DNA from: Candidatus Woesearchaeota archaeon
Lineage (GTDB): Archaea > Nanobdellota > Nanobdellia > UBA10117 > ARS21
DNA: 55,920 nt
Assembly (NCBI GenBank): GCA_038128845.1
Contig: JAYPKL010000003.1
Span: 1-55,920, forward strand
Direction: 5' to 3'
The translations under genes were made by a program, and so were the position numbers. The notes under the pieces are model-generated. The model was not told the origin of the DNA, did no database searches, and saw only the letters and a list, made by a program, of their open reading frames with translations. This document shows, piece after piece, positions 3,500 through 50,373 of the stretch. The stretch's first letter is position 1. Every line of letters starts with the position of its first letter.

Positions 3500-6400
3500 A
3501 TGGACTTCTTTGAAAAACATGAAGAAATTACAGAAAAAGGATTTGATCTAGATAATAAACTTAAAAATAGTACATCTTTTTCAGAATTATTTAACACAGT
3601 AGATTCTATTGAAGAATTATATAAAGAATCTGATAAATTACTACTTGAATCAGAATCTATAAATTCAAATTCTAATAAAAAATCTAAATCTTCAGTATTA
3701 TATAAAGTTGTTAAACCAGTTTTAGCAGCATCATCTATTTTAACTAGCGCAATTATGGGTTCAGGAATTGCTAAAGAATTATCAAATAATACTCTTGAAG
3801 ATATTATTTTTGAACCAATGTATTCTTCAGAAAATACAAATTCAATAAATTTAATTGATAATTTATACCAAATAAATAACGGAAGAATTAATCACGAATT
3901 TACTCCAGATAAAATATATGATCATGAAGAAAAAGTTTTGATAGAATCTAATCCGGGAGAAATTACTTTAACTTCAAAAAATATAGAATTTGATTTAAGA
4001 GATACCCAAGATAATTTAATTTATGAAACAAATAACGGTTATAATTTATTTAATTCATTAGGACGGAGTGGAGAAAGGGAAAATAAAAATATTGATAAAA
4101 TAAATATTAACAAAGAAAATTGTTTGGATGAATATAATTTATCTTTAAATGAAAAAATCTTCCTTAAACCAGGTATTGTACTTAATTACGGAGAAGAACC
4201 GTGGAAAAAATTTGTTACAGATAATAATCAAATAATACATACTACTAATGTGGATACCTCTAATGAATCTTCTAGAATTTTTAATGTCGGAGATACATTA
4301 GATTTTATAGACAATTATACTAAATTTTCAGGAATTGATTCTGATGGCGATTTTATTGTTGATAGAAATATAAATAAAAATTTTTTAAGTGAAAAGCTAT
4401 GGATTGGATCAAATAACTATATTAATTCAGACGTTAGAACAGATATATCAATTAATAGTTTAAATAGAATTAGTTTACCAGAAAATTACGAATCATCTCA
4501 ATCAGACTATTTTGCCTCCTTTGAAACAATATTTATACGTGAGGATGTAGTAAAACAAAATATCGATCTACCATTAAATCAACAAAAGAAGATAAATATT
4601 TCTGATGGATTAGAGATTAAAAGATTACAAAATTCAAATACAGATTATACGGATCTTATTGAAATAACATACAATGATTCAATGGGCGATAATCAATTTG
4701 AAAGAATTTTATTTAATAAATCATATAATCGTCAATCTAATATAGATAATCCTAATTCAGATATATGGATTGAATATAATTCTGAAAATAATTTATATAG
4801 TGTAAGAAAATCTAACGATATAGAAATTCCAATAAATATTTGTAATCAAAATAGTAATTCTATATTATTTAGTAATATAAACAGAGACTTAATTAAAGGT
4901 AATGAGTTTGTAAACGGAGAAAATACAATCATGCCTTCTAAGTTAGACAAAATAAATTTTTCAAAAAATGATAACTCAAATAATAATTTTACAATAACTG
5001 CAAATTTTTCAAAAATCGATTTAGTTTCTCCGTATATAGGCGATTTTAATTCTTTTGAATTTAATTCAAATTTAGATTTTGGTATCCGGGAAGAAAATCT
5101 AAAAAACGTTAATGTCAAGTTAAATGGATTAAATCAAAATTATAATATTAAAGATACTAACAAAGCAGATAGAAAAATTTTACAAATAGAAAATATCAGT
5201 AATTTAAATAAAGGATCCAATAATTTAGAAATAATATTAGAAGACTTATCAAATAATAAAAGAAACTATAATTTAGAAATATATAAATATATACCAAAAA
5301 ATATGGATTCAAATTTAATTGATACTTCTATAGATCATAAAGATAATAATGTAAATTATTTCATTGCTTTCGATAATAAACATGATAAAAATATTACATT
5401 AAATATTTTAGATAAAGATAAAAATAAATTGATATCAAAAAATTTAGATTTTCTTCTTAATAATACCGAAACAAATTATGATAGAGGTTTTATAAATTTA
5501 AATATAGATTGTGAAGACACAAATGAATTAAATTATGAAATAATTGAAAATATTGATAACTATAATATAATAAGAGTATCTGAAGACGGAGATCATAGTG
5601 CTTATGATTATTGGGGTTATTTTAAGGAAAATGGATCAAAAGTAAAAATTGACAATTTAGAAGTATTAGAAGATAATAAATCATACAGATTAAATTTTAC
5701 AATAGATAATAAAAATCATAGCATAGTTAATACAAAAGAAGGAGATGAATTATATGAAAAACTAAATTCATTAAATATTGAAAATATTGATAATCGATTG
5801 TTTGTTCCAGAATTAGATAAATATTTTGTTTTAACGGCAGAAGGCAATAATCAATCAGGTTTTTATTACCATTTACACTCATTCAATAAAGAATTAATTC
5901 AAAATATAAATTATAAAAATAACTTAATTAGAGAAAATATTAATCAAGATTCATTTGAAGATTCAGTGTTTATAGATGAAAATTTGATAAGAGATTATCC
6001 CGAATTTTCAGATTACTTAAATCAAACATTAAATTTATCTATTTCAGAAAAAGAAAATAATAAAATAAATCTACTTGATGTTACCAATAAGGATAAATTA
6101 ATTATATCCGAAGAAGAATCTTATCATTTAAACATTAAAGATTCAGATAATAATAATATTATGAATCGTACTGAATATTTCTCTAATAATAAATTTGCTC
6201 CAACTTCAGATAGAAATGAAGTGTTTAGATTATCAAATAAAAATAATTTAGAAGAAAAATTAGCTGAAGGTAAGATAAATTTGGATTGCGATATTAAAGT
6301 ACCAGAAAATCCTATATATAATCAAACAAATGAAACAGAAAATCCAATATATAATCAAACAAATGAAACAGAAAATCCAATATATAATCAAACAAATGAA

Positions 6401-6733
6401 ACAGAATTACCAAAAAACCCAGTATATAATCAAACTGAAGTAAAAAATGAAACAGAAGTTACAAATGAATCTGAGTTAGAATCCGTAATTGAAGATTTTA
6501 TTGGACCCAAAGAAACTAATGAAACTATAATTTACCGAGAAAATGAAAACTCTTATTCAGGTAAAGATTTAGCAATTGTTGGCGGATTGGCCTCAGGAAT
6601 TACAGGATTAGTTGGTGCTATATATAGTAAACTTTCTAGAAAAAATAAAGATAAGAAAGAAAAGGAATTAGCTAATATTTACGACGCAACACAAGAGATA
6701 GAAGATAATTTATTTGATAATCAGTACGATTAA
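3500..6733 (+). CDS. large membrane-anchored surface glycoprotein-like protein
   Basis: About 1077 aa, Asn-rich; hydrophobic segments near both termini; many NxS/T sequons in a stalk-like repeat region; ATG 3500 preferred over GTG 3485, which lies inside the leader stem. Confidence 0.65.
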   Translation: MDFFEKHEEITEKGFDLDNKLKNSTSFSELFNTVDSIEELYKESDKLLLESESINSNSNKKSKSSVLYKVVKPVLAASSILTSAIMGSGIAKELSNNTLEDIIFEPMYSSENTNSINLIDNLYQINNGRINHEFTPDKIYDHEEKVLIESNPGEITLTSKNIEFDLRDTQDNLIYETNNGYNLFNSLGRSGERENKNIDKININKENCLDEYNLSLNEKIFLKPGIVLNYGEEPWKKFVTDNNQIIHTTNVDTSNESSRIFNVGDTLDFIDNYTKFSGIDSDGDFIVDRNINKNFLSEKLWIGSNNYINSDVRTDISINSLNRISLPENYESSQSDYFASFETIFIREDVVKQNIDLPLNQQKKINISDGLEIKRLQNSNTDYTDLIEITYNDSMGDNQFERILFNKSYNRQSNIDNPNSDIWIEYNSENNLYSVRKSNDIEIPINICNQNSNSILFSNINRDLIKGNEFVNGENTIMPSKLDKINFSKNDNSNNNFTITANFSKIDLVSPYIGDFNSFEFNSNLDFGIREENLKNVNVKLNGLNQNYNIKDTNKADRKILQIENISNLNKGSNNLEIILEDLSNNKRNYNLEIYKYIPKNMDSNLIDTSIDHKDNNVNYFIAFDNKHDKNITLNILDKDKNKLISKNLDFLLNNTETNYDRGFINLNIDCEDTNELNYEIIENIDNYNIIRVSEDGDHSAYDYWGYFKENGSKVKIDNLEVLEDNKSYRLNFTIDNKNHSIVNTKEGDELYEKLNSLNIENIDNRLFVPELDKYFVLTAEGNNQSGFYYHLHSFNKELIQNINYKNNLIRENINQDSFEDSVFIDENLIRDYPEFSDYLNQTLNLSISEKENNKINLLDVTNKDKLIISEEESYHLNIKDSDNNNIMNRTEYFSNNKFAPTSDRNEVFRLSNKNNLEEKLAEGKINLDCDIKVPENPIYNQTNETENPIYNQTNETENPIYNQTNETELPKNPVYNQTEVKNETEVTNESELESVIEDFIGPKETNETIIYRENENSYSGKDLAIVGGLASGITGLVGAIYSKLSRKNKDKKEKELANIYDATQEIEDNLFDNQYD
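6305..6403 (+). repeat. 3 x 33-bp in-frame tandem repeat (ENPIYNQTNET)
   Basis: gaaaatccWatatataatcaaacaaatgaaaca at 6305, 6338 and 6371, plus a degenerate fourth copy. Confidence 0.95.
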
Positions 6734-8841: not shown

Positions 8842-8979
8842 ATGAGGCACGAATTATTCTGGTTTACAGTATTTATTCTATTCTTAGGACTATATTTTGA
8901 TACCGAAGTTACAAAAGAATTTGTGCAAGGCTTTTTAGTAAGAACATCTGAGATTTTAGTACAATTAGCAGGCAAATAA
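8842..8979 (+). CDS. 45-aa membrane microprotein, apparent paralog of 8593-8805 (not in ORF track)
   Basis: MRHELFWFTVFILFLGLYFDTEVTKEFVQGFLVRTSEILVQLAGK; TTTATATA 26 nt upstream; shares HE..F..LGL.F..E.T with its neighbour. Confidence 0.6.
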   Translation: MRHELFWFTVFILFLGLYFDTEVTKEFVQGFLVRTSEILVQLAGK

Positions 8980-9043
8980 AAACGTTTATAAATAAAATTT
9001 AAGATACTTGTATGAGCAAAGCTCAAAAAAATAAGTGATAAAA

Positions 9044-9274
9044 ATGGTAGAATTTAAGACACTGAGCTCCGAAGATTTAAAATTCGGTAAAAACAATTTC
9101 GTCGAAGTTGCTAGGAAAGTAGCTATTACAGAAGACGGTGAAAACGAATTCGTATCCTTGTCAAGAGGATTTTACACCGAAGAAGGTGAAAAAAGATACG
9201 CAAGAGGTAAAAACATAGCTTTACCAGCAGATTCTGACTTATTAAAAAAGATTTCAGAATTATTAGCAGAATAG
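9044..9274 (+). CDS. conserved small archaeal protein, possibly PC4-like nucleic-acid binding
   Basis: MVEFKT..FGKNNFVEVARK..ENEFVSLSRGF pattern resembles a small archaeal family (from memory); GTGAT SD-like motif upstream of ATG 9044. Confidence 0.6.
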   Translation: MVEFKTLSSEDLKFGKNNFVEVARKVAITEDGENEFVSLSRGFYTEEGEKRYARGKNIALPADSDLLKKISELLAE

Positions 9275-9300
9275 TGAGGGTAACACCTCACTATCTTTTT
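9271..9300 (+). terminator. intrinsic terminator-like hairpin
   Basis: ATAGTGAGG-GTAACA-CCTCACTAT followed by CTTTTT, overlapping the stop codon. Confidence 0.7.
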
Positions 9301-9325
9301 AAATTTTTACTTTATATAAAAATAA

Positions 9326-10465
9326 ATGCGAAAAATTAAAGACAACGAACGTATTTATGAAAAACAAGTTTTGGATCAAGCTTTAGGTAATTCGGATATT
9401 AATCCATTAAGTTGGCCTGATTTTGAAGTTGATATACCTGAAGATTCGGGCAGACCGTGGTATAAAGATGAAATTATAAATCATCGAGAGAAGATTCACC
9501 CTCAACTTACTCATATTATTGAAAATCGTTTAATTGAAGGAAAAAATCCAGATTCATTTGAACAAGTCAGAGAAGATTATATTACTTGGTGGTATAATAA
9601 TCAAAATAGAAACAATCCTTTATCAATGTCAACTGATTTAAACGGATTAGTCAATTTTTATGATAAAAATCCAAACTTTTTAGGAGAAGAAAAGGAAAAA
9701 AAGCTATTGCGGCTAAAAAATTTATCTTCATTAGTTGTACCAAAAGATGCAGAGGATTTAGAGGATGTTATAAAAATAATTAGGAAAGAATCCGGAGTAC
9801 ATATGAAAGATATTTTTAATGACGATAGTATGGACGATCAATCTTATATTTATTCAAATCTTAATTTAAATACCAATTCAATGAAAGGTTTTTCTAAATC
9901 TAGACCCGATTTTGGAACTTATGGAGAAGATAATGTATTATTATTATTTTCAAATAATCATTTATTTACATATGTGGATGGTAAATTAAAAAGTGCTATT
10001 AAATCGAATGATAATTTAATTACAATGACAAATCCTTCTGAATATATTTCTGAAAAAACTTTTGGTGCTTTTGATACAAGATTAAGAAAAAAATTGGTTT
10101 CTCCTTACTTAAATTTAATGGAAAGATTGGTCGAAGATTCAGATAATCAATCAGATGATATACTTGATTCCGAATGGTATAATATTCATTCAATTTTAGA
10201 TAATATTACCTCAGGTAATGCTCCATTAAAAAGTATTAGAAATGGACATTTGAGAGAAAATGAATTTAAAGAATATTTTGCAAATACTGGCAATGAAAAA
10301 TTATTCAAAAGATTTATTGGATTATATGGTACTCAAGAAGAGGCCACCAAAGAATTATTGTATAGAGGCTGGAAAGAAGGATTGATTCCAGATCCGCTGT
10401 CCGCATTGGAAAGAGGACAAGAAATGGAATATAAAAAAGACAGAGAAGTTGATTTATACATTTAA
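9326..10465 (+). CDS. hypothetical protein
   Basis: 379-aa ORF, no recognised motif. Confidence 0.65.
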   Translation: MRKIKDNERIYEKQVLDQALGNSDINPLSWPDFEVDIPEDSGRPWYKDEIINHREKIHPQLTHIIENRLIEGKNPDSFEQVREDYITWWYNNQNRNNPLSMSTDLNGLVNFYDKNPNFLGEEKEKKLLRLKNLSSLVVPKDAEDLEDVIKIIRKESGVHMKDIFNDDSMDDQSYIYSNLNLNTNSMKGFSKSRPDFGTYGEDNVLLLFSNNHLFTYVDGKLKSAIKSNDNLITMTNPSEYISEKTFGAFDTRLRKKLVSPYLNLMERLVEDSDNQSDDILDSEWYNIHSILDNITSGNAPLKSIRNGHLRENEFKEYFANTGNEKLFKRFIGLYGTQEEATKELLYRGWKEGLIPDPLSALERGQEMEYKKDREVDLYI

Positions 10466-29206: not shown

Positions 29207-29273
29207 ATTGAAATGTATAATTTTAGTTTATAAGAGTTAAGTTTTTAAATAAAAAATAAAGTCTCACTTTATT

Positions 29274-29348
29274 GCCCCTTTAGTGTAGTCCGGTCAATCA
29301 TCCATGGTTCTCAGCCGTGTGACGCGGGTTCAAATCCCGCAAGGGGCG
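29274..29348 (+). tRNA. tRNA-Glu(CTC)
   Basis: GCCCCTT/AAGGGGC acceptor; CATGG-TT CTC AG-CCGTG; T-arm GCGGG-TTCAAAT-CCCGC. Confidence 0.95.
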
Positions 29349-29441
29349 TACTATTATTAGTGACATTTAGTGTAGTATATTTAGAATTTTTAAAAAAAGT
29401 CTAATAAATAAATTTATAAACCAATTATTGAAGGCTAAATA

Positions 29442-30251
29442 ATGGCATTATATCATCCACACGAGAAAGAACAGGTTAGAGCTATAAGATATACATTAGA
29501 AACAGCTCCGCAAATTCAAAAACAGCTTAAAGAAAAATTTGGATACGGAGAAAATATGTTCTTTGATTTAGATTTAATAGAATATAGAATTCATAATTCT
29601 CGTAAAAAAATTGCCGAAGAGTTAGATGTTAAGTCTCTTTATGGTTTAAATGAGAATATTGCTGAAGGCGCAGTAAGTTATGCTTTTAGAGGTTACGATA
29701 GTGAAGAGTTTTTACCCGAATATAAGTTCGAAGGATTGTTTGGAGAACAATTGAATGATCTAATTGAAAAGAATAGAGGTAGTATAACTTGTCGGATTTA
29801 TGGTCGGATTATGCGTCGGAAAAGTGCTGAAGCACAAGGTAAACATATTTGGAGTCTAGATGAATTAATAAGTTTACATGAAATTCGTGAAGAATCAATT
29901 GGTAAAGGTCGTTATAAGACAACACCATGTATGACTTATGTTGCTGAAAAATTTAATGAAAGACACGGAACAGAACTAACTGAAAAAGCATTAATTATGG
30001 CATATTCACAAAACAAACATCGTCTTTCTGAAGCCGGTGTTGAAATAGCTGAACCTTTTTGGAGTCTAGATAAGTTAGTAAGTTTACATGAAATTCGTGA
30101 AGAATCAATTGGTAAGGGTATTAAAAAAACTCAACCATGTATGACTTATGTTACTGAAAAATTTAATGAACGACACGGAACAGACTTTACTAAAAAAGAC
30201 TTAACAGGGATGTATTCACTCAACAAACATCGTCTTTCTGAAGAAGAATAA
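29442..30251 (+). CDS. modular repeat protein: N-terminal HTH-like domain plus 2 x 70-aa HTH/Myb-like modules
   Basis: 210-bp units start at 29850 and 30060 (WSLD..SLHEIREES.GKG..PC..YV.EKFNE.HGT..AYS.NK); paralog at 44627. Confidence 0.8.
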   Translation: MALYHPHEKEQVRAIRYTLETAPQIQKQLKEKFGYGENMFFDLDLIEYRIHNSRKKIAEELDVKSLYGLNENIAEGAVSYAFRGYDSEEFLPEYKFEGLFGEQLNDLIEKNRGSITCRIYGRIMRRKSAEAQGKHIWSLDELISLHEIREESIGKGRYKTTPCMTYVAEKFNERHGTELTEKALIMAYSQNKHRLSEAGVEIAEPFWSLDKLVSLHEIREESIGKGIKKTQPCMTYVTEKFNERHGTDFTKKDLTGMYSLNKHRLSEEE

Positions 30252-30330
30252 ATTTATTTAAACTATTACTAGTTTATTAAATCAACAGGTAAAATACTAA
30301 ATATATTTACCAATTGTCACTAACAATTCT

Positions 30331-30348
30331 AATCACGCAAGGGGCGTA
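30331..30348 (+). repeat. second copy of tRNA-Glu 3' end (att-like)
   Basis: 17/18 identity to 29333-29350. Confidence 0.85.
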
Positions 30349-30388
30349 TAATAACAATTATTATAAAGTTTGCAAACTAAATAAATTT

Positions 30389-30553
30389 ATGAAAGAAAAA
30401 TATAATACACTTGAAGAATTAATGGGAAATTTTTCATTTGATAAAAGTATTATGGAAAAACAGTTAGAGAATACTCATATGAATATCTTTGAAGTTTATA
30501 CGGGCGGCAATAGTCATATGAATATCTTTGAAGTTTATACGGGCGGTAACTGA
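30389..30553 (+). CDS. 54-aa microprotein ending in a 13-aa tandem duplication
   Basis: ATG 30389 about 29 nt after ATTATAAA; 39-bp units at 30470 and 30509 (NxHMNIFEVYTGG). Confidence 0.5.
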   Translation: MKEKYNTLEELMGNFSFDKSIMEKQLENTHMNIFEVYTGGNSHMNIFEVYTGGN

Positions 30554-30588
30554 ATCCTACTTTAAATATTAGTTTTTAATAATAAATT

Positions 30589-30616
30589 TAATTTTAGTTG
30601 AACATATTTGGATCTA
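30589..30616. repeat. 28-bp dispersed direct repeat, copy 1
   Basis: taattttagttgaacatatttRgatcta, 27/28 identical to 32312-32339. Confidence 0.85.
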
Positions 30617-30762
30617 GAAATGATACCCGTGCAGCTTGCTGCAATACAGCCCGAGATTTTCCTTTCCCATCTTAATATGTATATATAACGTAGAATCATA
30701 ACACATCTAAACAGTGTTCGTTCTTTCCCAAAATGAGATACGAAAGGGCAATTGTCACCTAG

Positions 30763-30779
30763 AATCTCGCAAGGGGCGT
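30763..30779 (+). repeat. third copy of tRNA-Glu 3' end (att-like)
   Basis: AATCTCGCAAGGGGCGT, 16/17 identity; preceded by CAATTGTCAC like the second copy. Confidence 0.85.
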
Positions 30780-30792
30780 GCAATGAGATATC

Positions 30793-31359
30793 CTATCTTT
30801 TTTTACTCAAAATATTTCCTTCTAATGGATTTTTATATGAACTTTTTGGTTTTCGGCTTTCGATTAATTTTCTCATATACTTAATTAATTTAGTGTCTAA
30901 AATCGCTCCATCAAAATTCGCATTCACTACTTCATCAAGAATCGCCCACCTAAGATCTACTTTTTTAAGATTTACTCCATCAAGATTCGCTCTTCTAAGA
31001 TTTGCCTTTCTAAGGATCGCACCTTCAAGATGAACTCCTCTAAGATCCACTTCCTTAAGATTTGTATACCGCATATTTGATGCTCCAAGATCTGCTCCCC
31101 GAATATTCACCCCTCGAAGATCAGCTCCCTGAAGATTCGCTCCCCAAAGATTTGCCTTTCTAAGATCCGCTCCTTCAAGATTCGCACCCCGAAGATCCGC
31201 TAACCCAAGATCCGATCCCCGAAGATCCGCTCCTTCAAGATTCGCTCCCCGAAGATTCGCTCCCCAAAGATACGCACCCCGAAGATACGCACCCCGAAGA
31301 TACGCTCCTTTTAGTGTTTTTAAAGAATATTCTTTTAATATATCTGCTATTGTTTTCAT
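30793..31359 (-). CDS. pentapeptide repeat protein
   Basis: About 25 consecutive A(D/N/Y)LxG-type pentapeptides, 15-bp DNA periodicity. Confidence 0.95.
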   Translation of the reverse strand: MKTIADILKEYSLKTLKGAYLRGAYLRGAYLWGANLRGANLEGADLRGSDLGLADLRGANLEGADLRKANLWGANLQGADLRGVNIRGADLGASNMRYTNLKEVDLRGVHLEGAILRKANLRRANLDGVNLKKVDLRWAILDEVVNANFDGAILDTKLIKYMRKLIESRKPKSSYKNPLEGNILSKKR

Positions 31360-33180: not shown

Positions 33181-33966
33181 ATGGTATATGAAAACTTGTT
33201 TCAATATACGCCAATTCAGCATGATTTAATTGCTCAAACACTTACACTTACATATACAATTATGATTGCAGCTCTTCTTTATTTTGCATTTAGTCTAAAA
33301 ACAAATGCTCCAAAATATCGTACATCTGGAATTCTTTCGATAGTTGTTATGACTTCCGCATTTATTATTTTATTTTACCAATCACAAAGCTGGCAAAATG
33401 CTTTTACCTTTAATGCAGAAATAGGAAAATATGTTTTAGATTCCGGAGCAGATTTATTCTCAAATGGATATAGATATCTTAATTGGTTGATTGATGTACC
33501 TATGTTATTATTTCAAATATTATTCATTGTAAATTTATCACAAAAAGAATTTATCACAAAAAGAAATTGGTTTTTCATTTCAGGTGCAGCAATGATATTA
33601 CTAGGTTATGTTGGTCAATTTTATGAAACAACTAATGTCAACATGTTTATTACACTTGGATTAATTTCAACTGTATTTTTCATTCATATTTTATATTTAA
33701 TTTATGGAATAATTAAAGGAGCAATTAAAGATTTATCAAAGCCGGCTGGAAAAATTATGGCAGGAATTTGGATATTATTTTTATTCTCTTGGACACTCTA
33801 TCCAATCGCATATGCAATGCCAGTATTAGGTTATGGAGAATGGGGAGTTGTTGCAAGACAAATGATTTTTTCAGTAGCAGATGTATTGTCTAAAGTAATT
33901 TATGGAATTTTACTTATGAGAGTTGGGCAATTAAGAAGTAAAGAAGACGGATATAAATATAATTAA
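33181..33966 (+). CDS. type-1 microbial rhodopsin, NDQ motif (KR2-like light-driven Na+ pump)
   Basis: 7 TM; helix C NGYRYLNWLIDVPMLLFQILF (R98, N101, D105, Q112); helix G ARQ..ADVLSKVIYG (D234, retinal K238). Confidence 0.93.
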   Translation: MVYENLFQYTPIQHDLIAQTLTLTYTIMIAALLYFAFSLKTNAPKYRTSGILSIVVMTSAFIILFYQSQSWQNAFTFNAEIGKYVLDSGADLFSNGYRYLNWLIDVPMLLFQILFIVNLSQKEFITKRNWFFISGAAMILLGYVGQFYETTNVNMFITLGLISTVFFIHILYLIYGIIKGAIKDLSKPAGKIMAGIWILFLFSWTLYPIAYAMPVLGYGEWGVVARQMIFSVADVLSKVIYGILLMRVGQLRSKEDGYKYN

Positions 33967-43744: not shown

Positions 43745-44029
43745 ATGAAATTTAATAAAGAAGCAATTAGAATTTTATTATTTTTATTAATCGGTATTTC
43801 TTTAGTAAAAATGAGTTATGAAGAAACACCAGAATCATTATTAATTACATATAAAACAAAAATAGCTACAAATGATAACGGAGATCAAATTATTGATCAA
43901 AGATATAAAGTTGGAGAAAATAATAATTGTATATATGATTGTAAAAGTTATTCTGAAAATTCAGATTTAATATATCACTCCGCCATGGTAAGATCTTTTG
44001 GAGTATGTAATTGCAGGTATTTAGAATGA
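43745..44029 (+). CDS. small membrane-anchored protein with extracellular Cys motif
   Basis: N-terminal TM, C..DC and C.C. Confidence 0.55.
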   Translation: MKFNKEAIRILLFLLIGISLVKMSYEETPESLLITYKTKIATNDNGDQIIDQRYKVGENNNCIYDCKSYSENSDLIYHSAMVRSFGVCNCRYLE

Positions 44030-44430
44030 GACAGCCAAAATCTATGTCCGAATTAGTATATTTTACTCGTAGAAAAGACGAATTTGGATTAGTTAAATTA
44101 TGGGTATTTAGAGAAAATTGCCCTAGTTGTAATAATGCTCAAATGGGTAAACCAGTTGATCCAAAAACAAAAAAAGTAAAATCAAGAGCCAAAGAATATG
44201 TTTGTCCAGAATGCAATCATATTATTGAAAAAGAAGAATATGAAGATTCCTTGGATGCAAATATTGAATACACTTGTCCAGAAGGACATTCTCATGAAAA
44301 AATAATGCCTTTCAAAAGACAAAAAATATCTATAAAAGATCCTAAAACTGGTAAAAATAAGAGAAAACTTGGAATAATGTTTAATTGTGAAACTTGCGAT
44401 TTTGAAATAAAAGTTCCAAAATTAAAATAA
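44026..44430 (+). CDS. multi-zinc-ribbon protein
   Basis: LVYFTRR, CPSC, CPEC, CPEGH, CETC; start at ATG 44026. Confidence 0.75.
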   Translation: MRQPKSMSELVYFTRRKDEFGLVKLWVFRENCPSCNNAQMGKPVDPKTKKVKSRAKEYVCPECNHIIEKEEYEDSLDANIEYTCPEGHSHEKIMPFKRQKISIKDPKTGKNKRKLGIMFNCETCDFEIKVPKLK

Positions 44431-44466
44431 ATAACTTTTTAATATAAATTTAATAAAAAATTTAAT

Positions 44467-44540
44467 GCCTCGGTAGCTCAGTATGGTAGAGCGCTGCATT
44501 GGTAATGCAGAGGTCGCGAGTTCAAATCCCGCCTGGGGCA
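44467..44540 (+). tRNA. tRNA-Thr(GGT)
   Basis: GCCTCGG/CTGGGGC acceptor; CTGCA-TT GGT AA-TGCAG; A52-C62 mismatch in T-stem. Confidence 0.93.
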
Positions 44541-44549
44541 TCCAACGCA

Positions 44550-44626
44550 TAGTTTCATTTAGTGTAGTATATTTGGAATTTTTTAAAAAAAGTAAAATTT
44601 ATAAACCAATTATTGAAGGCTAAATT
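44550..44626 (+). repeat. leader/promoter homologous to 29358-29441
   Basis: TAGT..CATTTAGTGTAGTATATTT.GAATTTTT..AAAAAAAGT..AAATTTATAAACCAATTATTGAAGGCTAAAT shared by both loci. Confidence 0.9.
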
Positions 44627-45898
44627 ATGACATTATCTCATCCACACGAGCAAGAGCAGGTTAGTGCTATAAAATATACATTAGAAACAGCTCCAAAAGT
44701 TCAAAAACAACTTAAAGAAAAATTTGGATATGGAGAAAATATGTTTTTTGATTTGGACTTAATAGAATATAGAACTAAAAATTATGCTAAAGATATTGCT
44801 GAAGATTTAGATGTTAAATCTCTTTATGGTGTATCTGAAGGAGTTGCTGAACACGCAGTATGTAGCGCTTTTAGAGGTTACGATAGTGAAGAGTTTTTAC
44901 CCGAATTTCAGTTTGAAGGATTGTTTGGAAAACAACTGAATGATATAATTGAATATAATAAATATAAGATTAATGGTCAGAAAAATTACGCCAATGGTTT
45001 GGGTAAACTAACAGCTGAAGAAAGGTCCAAACTTAATCTGAAAGCTGTTGAAGCACGAGGAGACCATATTTGGAGTCTAGATGAATTAGTAAGTTTACAT
45101 AAAATTCGTAAAGAGTCAGTTGGCAAAGGTCATGATAAAACTAGACCATGTTGGAATTATGTTACTGAAAAATTTAATGAACAACACGGAACAGACCTTG
45201 GTAAAACAGCCGTATCAGTAGCATATTCAAAAAACAAACATATTCTTTCTGAAGCCGGTTTTGAAATAGCTGAACCGTTTTGGAGTTTAGATAAAATATT
45301 AAGTTTACATGAAATTCGTGAAGAGTCAGTCGGTAAAGGTCATTTTAAGAAAAAACCATGTAGGACTTATACTACTGAAAAATTTAATGAACGACATGGA
45401 ACAGACTTTACTAAAATAGAATTAAAAACGGCATATTCACGAAACAAACATCGTCTTTCTGAAGCCGGTGTTGAAATAGCTGAACCTTTTATTTGGAATC
45501 TTGACAAAATATTAAGTTTACATGAAATTCGTGAAGAGTCATTTGGCAAAGGTAATAAAAAAACAAGTCCATTTTGGACTTATGTCACTGAAGAATTTAA
45601 TGAACAACACGGAACAGACTTTACTAAACACGCATTAAGACAAGCATATAGTAAAAATAAACAACGTCTTTCTGAAGCCGGTGTTGAAATAGCTGAACCT
45701 TTTAGTTGGAATCTTGACAAAATATTAAGTTTACATAAAATTCGTAAAGAGTCATTTGGTAAAGGTCATGATAAAACTAGACCATGTTGGAATTATGTTA
45801 CTGAAAAATTTAATGAACAACACGGAACAGACCTTGGTAAAACAGCATTAAATACGGCATATTGGCGAAACAAACATATTCTTTCTGAAGAAGAATAA
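44627..45898 (+). CDS. modular repeat protein: N-terminal HTH-like domain plus 4 x 70-71-aa HTH/Myb-like modules
   Basis: Units start at 45071, 45281, 45494 and 45707 (210/213/213 bp); paralog of 29442-30251. Confidence 0.8.
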   Translation: MTLSHPHEQEQVSAIKYTLETAPKVQKQLKEKFGYGENMFFDLDLIEYRTKNYAKDIAEDLDVKSLYGVSEGVAEHAVCSAFRGYDSEEFLPEFQFEGLFGKQLNDIIEYNKYKINGQKNYANGLGKLTAEERSKLNLKAVEARGDHIWSLDELVSLHKIRKESVGKGHDKTRPCWNYVTEKFNEQHGTDLGKTAVSVAYSKNKHILSEAGFEIAEPFWSLDKILSLHEIREESVGKGHFKKKPCRTYTTEKFNERHGTDFTKIELKTAYSRNKHRLSEAGVEIAEPFIWNLDKILSLHEIREESFGKGNKKTSPFWTYVTEEFNEQHGTDFTKHALRQAYSKNKQRLSEAGVEIAEPFSWNLDKILSLHKIRKESFGKGHDKTRPCWNYVTEKFNEQHGTDLGKTALNTAYWRNKHILSEEE

Positions 45899-45958
45899 GT
45901 ATATTAATTATGCTTTTTTAAGACATTAAAGTTTAATAATATAATTAATAAATGTTAT

Positions 45959-49656: not shown

Positions 49657-50373
49657 TTATTGATTAATTCCTAATGATTCATAAATATCATTTAAAGTAA
49701 GATTATATTCAACTGCGATTCCTTCATGCGACCATCCTGAATCCAATAAACTGGAAATCCAGTCTCGATCCGGTAAAGATTTGCATAATTCTTCCAAAGT
49801 TAATTCAGAATTCTGAATATCATCTAAATTTCTTACTACTGGTATATTCTGAATATCATCTAAATTTCTTACTACCGGTCTATTTCTATAAGGATTATCT
49901 ATTCCCATTACAGTATAAATTTTAGAAGGATCAATTACTTTTACATCATTAGAACCTCCAGTTACATAAAGTGCTCTAATGTCTCTATAAATTGTTTTAT
50001 CATCAACTAGATCTTCTAAACCATAAGTAGGATCTATGGATTTATTTGGATTACCTGCTGAAAAAAACTTTGTTTTTCCAAAATGATCTTCAATTGATCC
50101 GTCATGAATAGAAATATATGTAATTAAATTAGGATCTTTATTTGAAATAGAAATTTTTTCTGATATTTTTTCAATTAAACCAAACATTCTTAGTTTATGA
50201 AAAGATAATCCCTTTTCTTCATCTTTTAAATCTAAATATTTGTTCCTTGCATTAATTAAATCTTCTTCAGATAAATCTACATAGTGTTCATTATCTCTAA
50301 CATAACTTTGACCAATACCGGATTCTCCAGTATGTGAATGAGCTGAACTAACTTTAAATGTTACATATGTCAT
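49657..50373 (-). CDS. hypothetical protein with a 12-aa internal duplication and C-terminal HTH-like segment
   Basis: PVVRNLDDIQN x2 (36-bp units at 49810 and 49846); stop 4 nt from the tRNA-Tyr 3' end. Confidence 0.6.
   Translation of the reverse strand: MTYVTFKVSSAHSHTGESGIGQSYVRDNEHYVDLSEEDLINARNKYLDLKDEEKGLSFHKLRMFGLIEKISEKISISNKDPNLITYISIHDGSIEDHFGKTKFFSAGNPNKSIDPTYGLEDLVDDKTIYRDIRALYVTGGSNDVKVIDPSKIYTVMGIDNPYRNRPVVRNLDDIQNIPVVRNLDDIQNSELTLEELCKSLPDRDWISSLLDSGWSHEGIAVEYNLTLNDIYESLGINQ

Follow-up and report, generated by a model that had tools for sequence, protein, structure and literature searches.

The window analysed here, a 55,920-nt stretch of DNA from an assembly of a Candidatus Woesearchaeota archaeon (GCA_038128845.1, contig JAYPKL010000003.1), carries a gene, referred to below as gene A, whose product ends in four tandem modules of about 70 amino acids (A1 to A4). 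Intragenic gene conversion between the first and the fourth of these modules is well supported, and the evidence supports reducing the recombination in this gene to one recent conversion of A4 by A1 atop an older expansion of the array. As for the locus as a whole, its best overall explanation, which we consider likely, is that of a strain-variable cassette with putative helix-turn-helix (HTH) modules and an A1-to-A4 conversion, coding for a DNA-binding regulator tied to mobile elements. Gene A and the parts on which the argument turns are laid out as follows.

44627–45898 (+): gene A, 423 amino acids, 1.3 kb, taken from the list of open reading frames (ORFs) and family hidden Markov models; N-terminal family domain, one Gly/Lys-rich linker repeat, four modules and an acidic SEEE tail
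44627–45070 (+): N-terminal domain (about residues 1–115) and the one linker repeat (YANGLGKLTAEERSK...), from alignments with relatives
45071–45280 (+): module A1, the likely donor
45281–45493 (+): module A2, nearest to both modules of the relative P0005, with 19 differences from each
45494–45706 (+): module A3, whose head is of the ancestral second-module type and whose body diverges most
45707–45898 (+): module A4, terminal, the likely recipient, stop codon included
45452–45523 (+): A2/A3 junction, 72 nt with one mismatch against the A3/A4 junction at 45665–45736
45090–45210 (+): donor copy of the tract in A1, identical to 45726–45846 at 119 of 121 positions, with a perfect core at 45125–45210
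45726–45846 (+): recipient copy of the tract in A4, with its perfect core at 45761–45846
45847–45867 (+): unconverted patch of A4, 12 of 21 nt mismatched against A1 (45211–45231), coding the N-terminal half of helix 3 (limits from the AlphaFold2 model)
45868–45890 (+): second A1-identical block in A4, 23 nt equal to 45232–45254, with KHI codons present only in A1 and A4

The array consists of four head-to-tail units of 210, 213, 213 and 192 bp, on which the TRF program and a repeat finder agree, with in-frame starts at 45071, 45281, 45494 and 45707. Together with the two modules of a paralog in the same window (paralog B, described below) they make up six units with pairwise identities of 77–87%, and A2 and A3 diverge by 17–21% from both A1 and A4. 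The 86-bp identity between A1 and A4, which an earlier sequence-only reading of this DNA had pointed out, proved to be exact (45125–45210 = 45761–45846), and neither of its ends can be extended. Along the aligned modules, six differences between A1 and A4 fall in columns 5–19, columns 20–140 form the nearly identical tract, columns 141–161 make up the mismatched patch, and columns 162–184 are again identical; beyond column 184 the tails part, with A1 running into the linker and A4 ending in SEEE. The tract is thus flanked by divergent sequence on both sides, which is the pattern by which gene conversion is recognized.

A Sawyer-type permutation test (20,000 permutations) was applied to the 73 polymorphic columns of the six window modules. 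A1 and A4 share a run of 34 consecutive concordant polymorphic sites, against nine for the second-best pair, and a run of this length was reached in none of the permutations, either pairwise or globally. With 16 modules from relatives added (22 modules in all), the A1–A4 run comprised 44 sites (pairwise P < 1/3000, global P = 0.008), and no other within-gene pair of modules was significant, those of P0005, P0002 and others included. There are no synonymous differences in the tract, whereas the proportion of synonymous differences (pS) in the framework among modules is about 0.18. The recombination tests on aligned modules that the sequence-only reading had suggested therefore single out the A1–A4 tract, and its proposal of recent intragenic recombination or gene conversion is well supported, given an exceptional tract devoid of synonymous differences, exchange points on both sides of it, and independent unitig support.

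The direction of the transfer was read from a DNA-level alignment of the A modules with modules of relatives. First modules in all genes start with WSLDEL(V/I)SLH and later ones with W(S/N/T)LDK(I/L)(L/V)SLH, and terminal modules end in SEEE. Columns 1–30 of A4 are identical to A3, as had been noted from the sequence alone, but also to module 2 of P0005 from another genome; A3 and A4 have the Phe codon of SFGKG in common. This A3–A4 head match is not significant taken alone (P = 0.13, six-module permutation), and its presence in P0005 module 2 indicates that the unit-3-like head of A4 was inherited as an ancestral second-module head, with no shuffling needed. The term "module shuffling" was in this respect an overstatement, since the head is ancestral, the SEEE tail is normal for a terminal module, and only the interior of A4 requires a transfer. 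The end of the recognition helix, which had been described as new, is indeed unique within the window (LNTAYWR), but it resembles TALNCAYDR of P0002 module 1, and the DNA of this stretch is closest to A2. As for the interior, the states HKIRKES, LG and KHI occur in A1 and A4 and in none of the other modules compared, and the nearest relatives of the A1/A4 interior, after A4 itself, are first or sole modules (P0003 module 1, L019 and L020). Because these relatives are first or sole modules, module 1 would be the donor and module 4 the recipient, an outgroup-based assignment that we hold with moderate confidence. A2 is equally close overall to both P0005 modules, with its helix-3 region nearest to P0005 module 1, and an older unequal exchange is still needed to account for four modules.

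A further statement of the sequence-only reading was that the N-terminal domains of A and B differ mainly in two short blocks (IHNSRKK/TKNYAKD and a second block). The two domains have 86 of 112 residues in common, and the blocks hold 12 of the 26 differences, so that "mainly" amounts to roughly half; a very different linker had been overlooked. The proportion of non-synonymous differences is 0.435 within the blocks and 0.066 outside them, with similar pS in both.

A tandem repeat within a metagenome assembly invites the suspicion that the four-unit array, or the 86-bp identity itself, consists of misjoined or collapsed repeat copies from several strains, the more so as unitigs break at repeats and variants of different strains occur side by side (45307 and 45320 are examples). 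Four estuary metagenome runs contain 68–89% of the 31-mers of the region, and Logan unitigs, which were assembled independently, cover in these runs the passages from the N-terminal domain through the A1 head into the tract, from the tract through the A1 tail into A2, from A2 into A3, from A3 through the A4 head into the tract, and from the tract through the A4 tail into the downstream gene. No alternative joint across the array was seen in the unitigs of the four runs. In run X2, the 86-bp tract forms a unitig of its own with a depth of 13.8x, and its flanks, at 7.8x, 4x and 8.6x, have roughly half this depth. Two entries, two exits, and a depth that is double in the tract but single outside it permit only one linear path, that of the assembly. 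A point on the other side is that 31-mer unitigs are unable to phase the two 86-bp copies directly, so that the four-module order is a depth and path argument, and the location of both copies on one molecule is supported by the unitig path and the twofold depth, from 31-mer unitigs only. Because independent unitigs from four metagenomes cover every junction, the repeat collapse that had been named as what would refute the sequence-only reading is unlikely, and an artefact of either kind is given very little weight.

Even less can be said for selection or slow evolution as the cause of the A1/A4 identity. Helix 2 and the framework are conserved at the protein level, but the tract spans 34–44 sites that vary in other modules, many of them synonymous, and the complete lack of synonymous differences against the framework pS given above effectively refutes this explanation. 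A single unequal crossover, or a recent duplication of a module, would have made units 1 and 4 alike without any non-reciprocal conversion, and this has more in its favor: unequal crossover must have built the array, the A2/A3 and A3/A4 junctions are nearly identical over 72 nt, and contigs from relatives are consistent with a one-module allele. A single crossover, however, leaves one breakpoint, while A4 differs from A1 in the head (5–19), the patch (141–161) and the tail, and the intervening A2 and A3 are diverged from both. We regard this alternative as improbable; with two to four exchange points apparent in the alignment, patchy non-reciprocal conversion would fit better than a single unequal crossover.

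Some 120 bp of module 1 (as many as about 165 bp if the second identical block is included) have replaced the interior of module 4, which has retained its own head, its terminal tail and the 21 nt coding the start of helix 3. In the sequence of events that we propose, the array would have grown by unequal homologous recombination between the 210/213-bp repeats, and the tract would represent a recent non-reciprocal gene conversion, by ordinary homologous recombination, with module 1 as the donor. The loop between helices 1 and 2 (H1–H2 loop) and the first half of helix 3 (H3) would be diversifying DNA-contact surfaces, and the conversion would have yielded a module with the loop of module 1 and its own helix 3. 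The protein itself would be a sequence-specific DNA-binding regulator, linked to mobile elements at tRNA-proximal sites.

The AlphaFold2 (AF2) model of a single module has a predicted local distance difference test score (pLDDT) of 87 and a predicted template-modelling score of 0.74, with helices at residues 9–22, 34–45 and 51–66, and in the full-length model of B the modules reach a pLDDT of about 90 with three helices in each. A three-helix bundle with helices 2–3 as an HTH is thus found, in predicted structures only. The weak Foldseek matches of the single module include the GT-1 trihelix domain (E = 1.4, TM-score 0.56) and the Myb-like domain of KNL-2 (E = 6.3, TM-score 0.52); the list is mostly one of Myb, trihelix, homeodomain and transposase HTH folds, with PHR2 and a TIP60 TRRAP-module chain also on it. 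The full-length model of B gave nothing significant in Foldseek (best E = 0.65). Among the Myb/SANT-like Pfam families tested at the gathering threshold (PF13873, PF12776 and PF00249), E ≤ 0.1 was reached in one of 35 family members, and the distant P0063 scores 13 against a cut-off of 24.4. Since the confident three-helix model coincides with sub-threshold similarities to Myb and other HTH domains, the modules are, on these predictions, most likely HTH DNA-binding units.

A homing endonuclease with NUMOD3 repeats, suggested by the Gly/Lys-rich linker repeats, was also considered and rejected: there is no Pfam match to it even at E ≤ 10 and no GIY-YIG, HNH, LAGLIDADG or NUMOD domain, and the more distant members of the family do not conserve the GYG..YR string of the N-terminal part.

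Among 22 closely related modules, the amino-acid entropy is highest in the H1–H2 loop (positions 21, 22 and 25) and in the first half of H3 (positions 46–54). The conversion brought the H1–H2 loop of A1 (HDKTR..WN) into A4, which kept its own helix-3 start, and A4 therefore pairs the A1 loop with a different helix 3. This new pairing concerns the positions of highest non-synonymous divergence and is plausible as a new specificity.

The protein family to which A and B belong was found in only 37 clusters in a search of 5.8 billion proteins, all of marine or estuarine metagenomic origin and one of them bearing the label of a DHVE6-group archaeon, and a profile of the N-terminal domain retrieved only 32 clusters from 1.84 billion representatives. 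The GTDB genomes contain one family relative, in a Woesearchaeota metagenome-assembled genome (MAG); the RtcB protein of the window is 90% identical to that of the Woesearchaeota MAG RS366. No relative was found in IMG/VR, in a phage collection or in a plasmid collection, and searches of the family against Pfam, PHROG and PDB sequences gave no match that reached significance. To judge from these searches, the family is very small and confined to marine Woesearchaeota-type DPANN archaea. Its general plan comprises an N-terminal domain of about 115 residues, none to four Gly/Lys-rich repeats of 20–26 residues (G.K.Y..GLG..T.EE.SE..RK), one to four modules of about 70 residues and an acidic tail. 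The distant members inspected follow the same plan, except for P0048, whose C-terminal part is apparently unrelated. Four modules occur in gene A only, all other members having one or two. Tandem pairs of family genes are present in L007, L025, L028 and L037, and in most family genes the modules are nearer to their positional orthologs than to their neighbors, which indicates weak concerted evolution.

Gene A lies immediately downstream of a tRNA gene, in a segment with the following features.

44466–44544 (+): tRNA-Thr(GGT), found by ARAGORN, 34 nt upstream of the cassette
44556–44578 (+): conserved motif CATTTAGTGTAGTATATTTGGAA, which stays in the empty site and is also found after tRNA-Glu at paralog B
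44579–45913 (+): cassette of 1,335 bp, comprising gene A with its promoter and 15 nt of 3' flank
44579–44586 and 45914–45921: 8-bp direct repeat TTTTTTAA bounding the cassette (P ~1.7e-4 for a random position pair)
44598–44605 (+): TTTATAAA, the likely TATA box of gene A's own promoter, judging from conservation

The joint of an empty site, 44578 to 45914, was found in contigs of three salt-marsh runs whose flanks are about 98% identical to the window. One of these contigs, of 2,454 nt, runs from tRNA-Thr through CATTTAGTGTAGTATATTTGGAA directly into the sequence upstream of an FNR-like gene. Gene A is accordingly present in some strains and precisely absent from others. Fragments of contigs from the same runs would fit a one-module allele and also a two-module allele like that of P0005, so that the locus in relatives has no gene, a two-module gene or, probably, a one-module allele, against four modules here. 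The strain variability of gene A at a tRNA-proximal hot spot, together with its standing as the sole four-module member of the family, had been missed in the sequence-only reading. As at gene A, tRNA-Thr(GGT) precedes family genes in L008, L019, L023 and L024. The two-module genes of L008 and L016, together with the genes downstream of them, share 98.7% identity starting some 54 nt before the start codon; further upstream the two are unrelated, with tRNA-Thr in L008 and the end of an ORF in L016, and the switch falls at the left boundary of the cassette. No terminal inverted repeats of the 1,335-bp cassette were found. Site-specific insertion, homologous replacement through the conserved flanks and microhomology deletion are all compatible with the gene A indel, and we cannot tell them apart.

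At every locus whose flanks were compared, the family gene is preceded by the conserved block TTTAtAAAcCAATTATT..ATG, and from this arrangement the mRNA of gene A would be leaderless or have a very short leader; no RNA runs containing the region were found. It was also observed that a small CxxC...CxxC zinc-ribbon ORF ends just 5' of the family-gene promoter in the integrase-linked elements L041 and L025, and that a different zinc-ribbon gene (44011–44430 of the window) precedes tRNA-Thr at the gene A locus.

Several results weigh against the reading of gene A as a DNA-binding regulator that diversifies on a mobile cassette. The N-terminal domain has a pLDDT below 50 in the AF2 model of B. The scores of gene A with Myb-like Pfam families, 20.1 bits (cut-off 21.7) and 17.0 bits (cut-off 23.6), lie below the gathering thresholds, Foldseek with the single module gave no match at E ≤ 0.001 (best E = 0.26), and against PDB sequences the family profile had no match and the module profile only AM32 (4p0y), with E = 0.28. 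The ratio of non-synonymous to synonymous substitution rates (dN/dS) in structure-defined classes is 0.35 in helix 1, 0.30 in helix 2, 0.88 in the H1–H2 loop and 1.21 in the first half of H3, a maximum of only about 1.2 that is compatible with relaxed constraint too. At the ten positions of highest entropy dN/dS is about 2.0, against 0.43 elsewhere, but these positions were picked by entropy, which makes the test circular. Moreover, orthologs at one and the same tRNA locus have widely different helix-3 sequences, which do not track the tRNA site. As for mobility, no partial tRNA-Thr repeat was found near gene A (up to 5 kb downstream with 10–12-mers and 15 kb with 14-mers), for which reason the indel could be a microhomology deletion instead, and there is no integrase in the window (best tblastn E = 1.8).

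Two tRNA-proximal loci of the family are present in the window, and the second, that of paralog B, has the following parts.

29442–30251 (+): paralog B, 269 amino acids, two modules, with its ATG 92 nt after tRNA-Glu(CTC) at 29273–29349
30331–30347 (+): partial tRNA-Glu 3'-end repeat, 16 of 17 nt, just after paralog B, with a second copy at 30763–30779

The ATG of gene A lies 82 nt after tRNA-Thr, and the homology between the A and B loci begins 10–16 nt after the tRNA. Two further copies of the last 17 nt of tRNA-Glu, with one mismatch, lie at 30331 and 30763; the number expected by chance is 0.01. The arrangement is syntenic in the 447-kb contig L001, in which the same partial tRNA-Glu repeat follows the ortholog of paralog B, and a tRNA 3'-end repeat at the far boundary is thus present both at paralog B and in L001. 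Gene A, by comparison, adjoins the 3' end of its tRNA but has neither a tRNA-repeat boundary nor an internal integrase. No empty-site joint was seen for paralog B. In the family at large, 20 of the 52 listed copies have a tRNA gene (Glu, Thr, Asp, Asn or His) at a distance of 450 nt or less; some rows of this count are redundant, and many of the other contigs are not long enough for a decision. Full-length genes for tyrosine integrases adjoin the family gene in L002, L007, L028, L041 and L044, and fragments of such genes do so in L035 and L046; the PF00589 score is 82 bits for L007 and 25.2 bits, against a cut-off of 27.1, for L002. In L021 and L022 the family gene is preceded by a partial 3'-end fragment of tRNA-Glu, and roughly 1 kb of additional sequence separates this fragment from tRNA-Glu itself.

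These linkages bear on a different function, namely that the protein is not a regulator but either an accessory factor of neighboring tyrosine integrases, acting in site selection or directionality, or a selfish gene resembling a homing endonuclease. Five loci have an integrase as the immediate neighbor of the family gene and the family is tRNA-proximal, the indel fits the gene precisely and is bounded by an 8-bp direct repeat, the left breakpoint recurs independently (L008 versus L016), and the modular DNA-binding architecture recalls homing endonucleases. Nevertheless, no nuclease or recombinase motif or domain was found, most copies, both of those in the window included, have no integrase nearby, and the helix-3 sequences are uncorrelated with tRNA identity. 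Such a function is accordingly unlikely, although among the alternatives it keeps the most weight, and the DNA-binding regulator tied to mobile elements is preferred.

Some further observations concern the sequences around the two tRNA genes. The motif CATTTAGTGTAGTATATTT occurs at 44556–44578 and 29374–29396 of the window and at 75–93 of L047; it follows two different tRNAs and is kept where the cassette is missing. The core of this motif, TTTAGTGTAGT, matches the tRNA-Glu of the window in its 5' D-arm region (29279–29289), and the motif after tRNA-Glu is also present in the Woesearchaeota MAG RS366. The CATTTAGTGTAGTATATTT motif could serve as a landing pad, be what is left of a tRNA 5' half, or act as a signal for processing or termination. 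Among GTDB genomes, its 19-mer was found in MAG RS366 only, apart from four matches that look like chance: one falls where there is neither a tRNA nor a family gene, and three are in bacterial genomes.

Between the second and third partial tRNA-Glu repeats lie 432 bp (30348–30779), which may be the remnant of a second mini-element; a 79-residue ORF at 30314–30553 contains a 39-bp tandem duplication (97% identical, 30470–30546), and one may speculate that these two copies beside the two-module paralog B are candidate binding sites. In coexisting strains (loose ends in X1, X6 and X8), the sequence after the stop of paralog B (30251) switches to TATTATCAAAAAGACAACATTTTTAAACCA, which resembles the conserved promoter of another family gene, so that some strains may have a second copy in tandem. 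A gene for a 188-residue pentapeptide-repeat protein (30793–31359, –) with a 15-bp periodicity at the DNA level (TRF 31087–31308, 14.8 copies) lies at the far end of the variable region after tRNA-Glu; the syntenic L001 and L010 lack it. This DPANN genome also has a microbial rhodopsin gene (33181–33966, +), separated from paralog B by a few kb, whose L001 ortholog (8977–9762) matches PF01036. In-gene tandem repeats elsewhere in the window were seen at 6303–6406 (33 bp × 3.2, 98%) and at 49810–49884 (36 bp × 2.1, 94%), the latter duplicating PVVRNLDDIQN in the ORF at 49657–50373 (–).

Tandem DNA-binding repeats are well known to undergo gene conversion and to change in copy number, and the core finding is in itself unsurprising; its value lies in the setting, a new and narrow family, unmatched elsewhere, of putative multi-HTH proteins in uncultivated marine DPANN archaea. 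The family marks tRNA-proximal hot spots, sometimes alongside integrases, and could serve as a marker of mobile elements in genomes for which almost none have been described. If the modules bind DNA, the locus is a compact natural experiment in the assembly of new specificities.

Among known systems, the tycheposon-type elements of streamlined marine genomes form tRNA-seeded islands driven by tyrosine recombinases, in which elements and their remnants pile up by a tRNA gene, flanked by partial tRNA repeats, with newer ones pushing older ones outward (bioRxiv 10.1101/2020.12.28.424599). The paralog B locus with its three copies of the tRNA-Glu 3' end, L021 and L022, and the integrase-linked loci fit this island model. 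At the same time, the host is an archaeon here, the cassettes of the window consist of one gene with no integrase, gene A has no partial-tRNA repeat, and no circular or excised form was seen in the present data.

As regards the fold, the family has in common with Myb/SANT domains and the plant trihelix (GT-factor) domains the tandem three-helix modules, the spaced aromatic core (W1, W/M28 and Y52 in this case) and last two helices that read as an HTH, and its best, non-significant matches in Pfam are Myb_DNA-bind_5 and _3. It differs in scoring under every curated or significance threshold, in its longer modules of 70 residues with a Lys-rich H1–H2 loop of 11 residues, in a module number that varies from one to four between alleles, in a family-specific N-terminal domain with no match elsewhere, and in its DPANN host. 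AM32, a protein of a pAMbeta1-type plasmid (PDB 4p0y), is the sole match among PDB sequences and aligns along helix 2, the turn and helix 3 (YVTEKFNE..GT..L..AY.RNKH on the family side), but the alignment is not significant, covers 35 residues only and comes from a bacterial plasmid source.

Transcription activator-like effectors (TALE) and the zinc-finger arrays of KRAB and PRDM9 proteins are repeat arrays with variable contact residues that evolve by recombination. A tentative and, in our estimate, improbable extension would be that the family is an archaeal, element-borne, modular DNA-recognition system in which the loop and helix 3 of each module read a segment of DNA, and whose fast turnover, by recombination, of contacts and of module number (0, 1, 2 or 4 at this locus) provides new immunity or targeting specificities for elements competing at tRNA-proximal sites. 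If this were true, a TALE- or PRDM9-like evolutionary regime, with a decipherable recognition code, would exist in DPANN archaea; we know of no recognition code for the modules of this family. The present arrays differ from TALE and KRAB/PRDM9 arrays in having another fold, much longer repeats, only one to four of them, and weak concerted evolution, but they share with them a near-identical framework with variation at a few putative DNA-contact positions, changes in copy number, and gene conversion between non-adjacent repeats.

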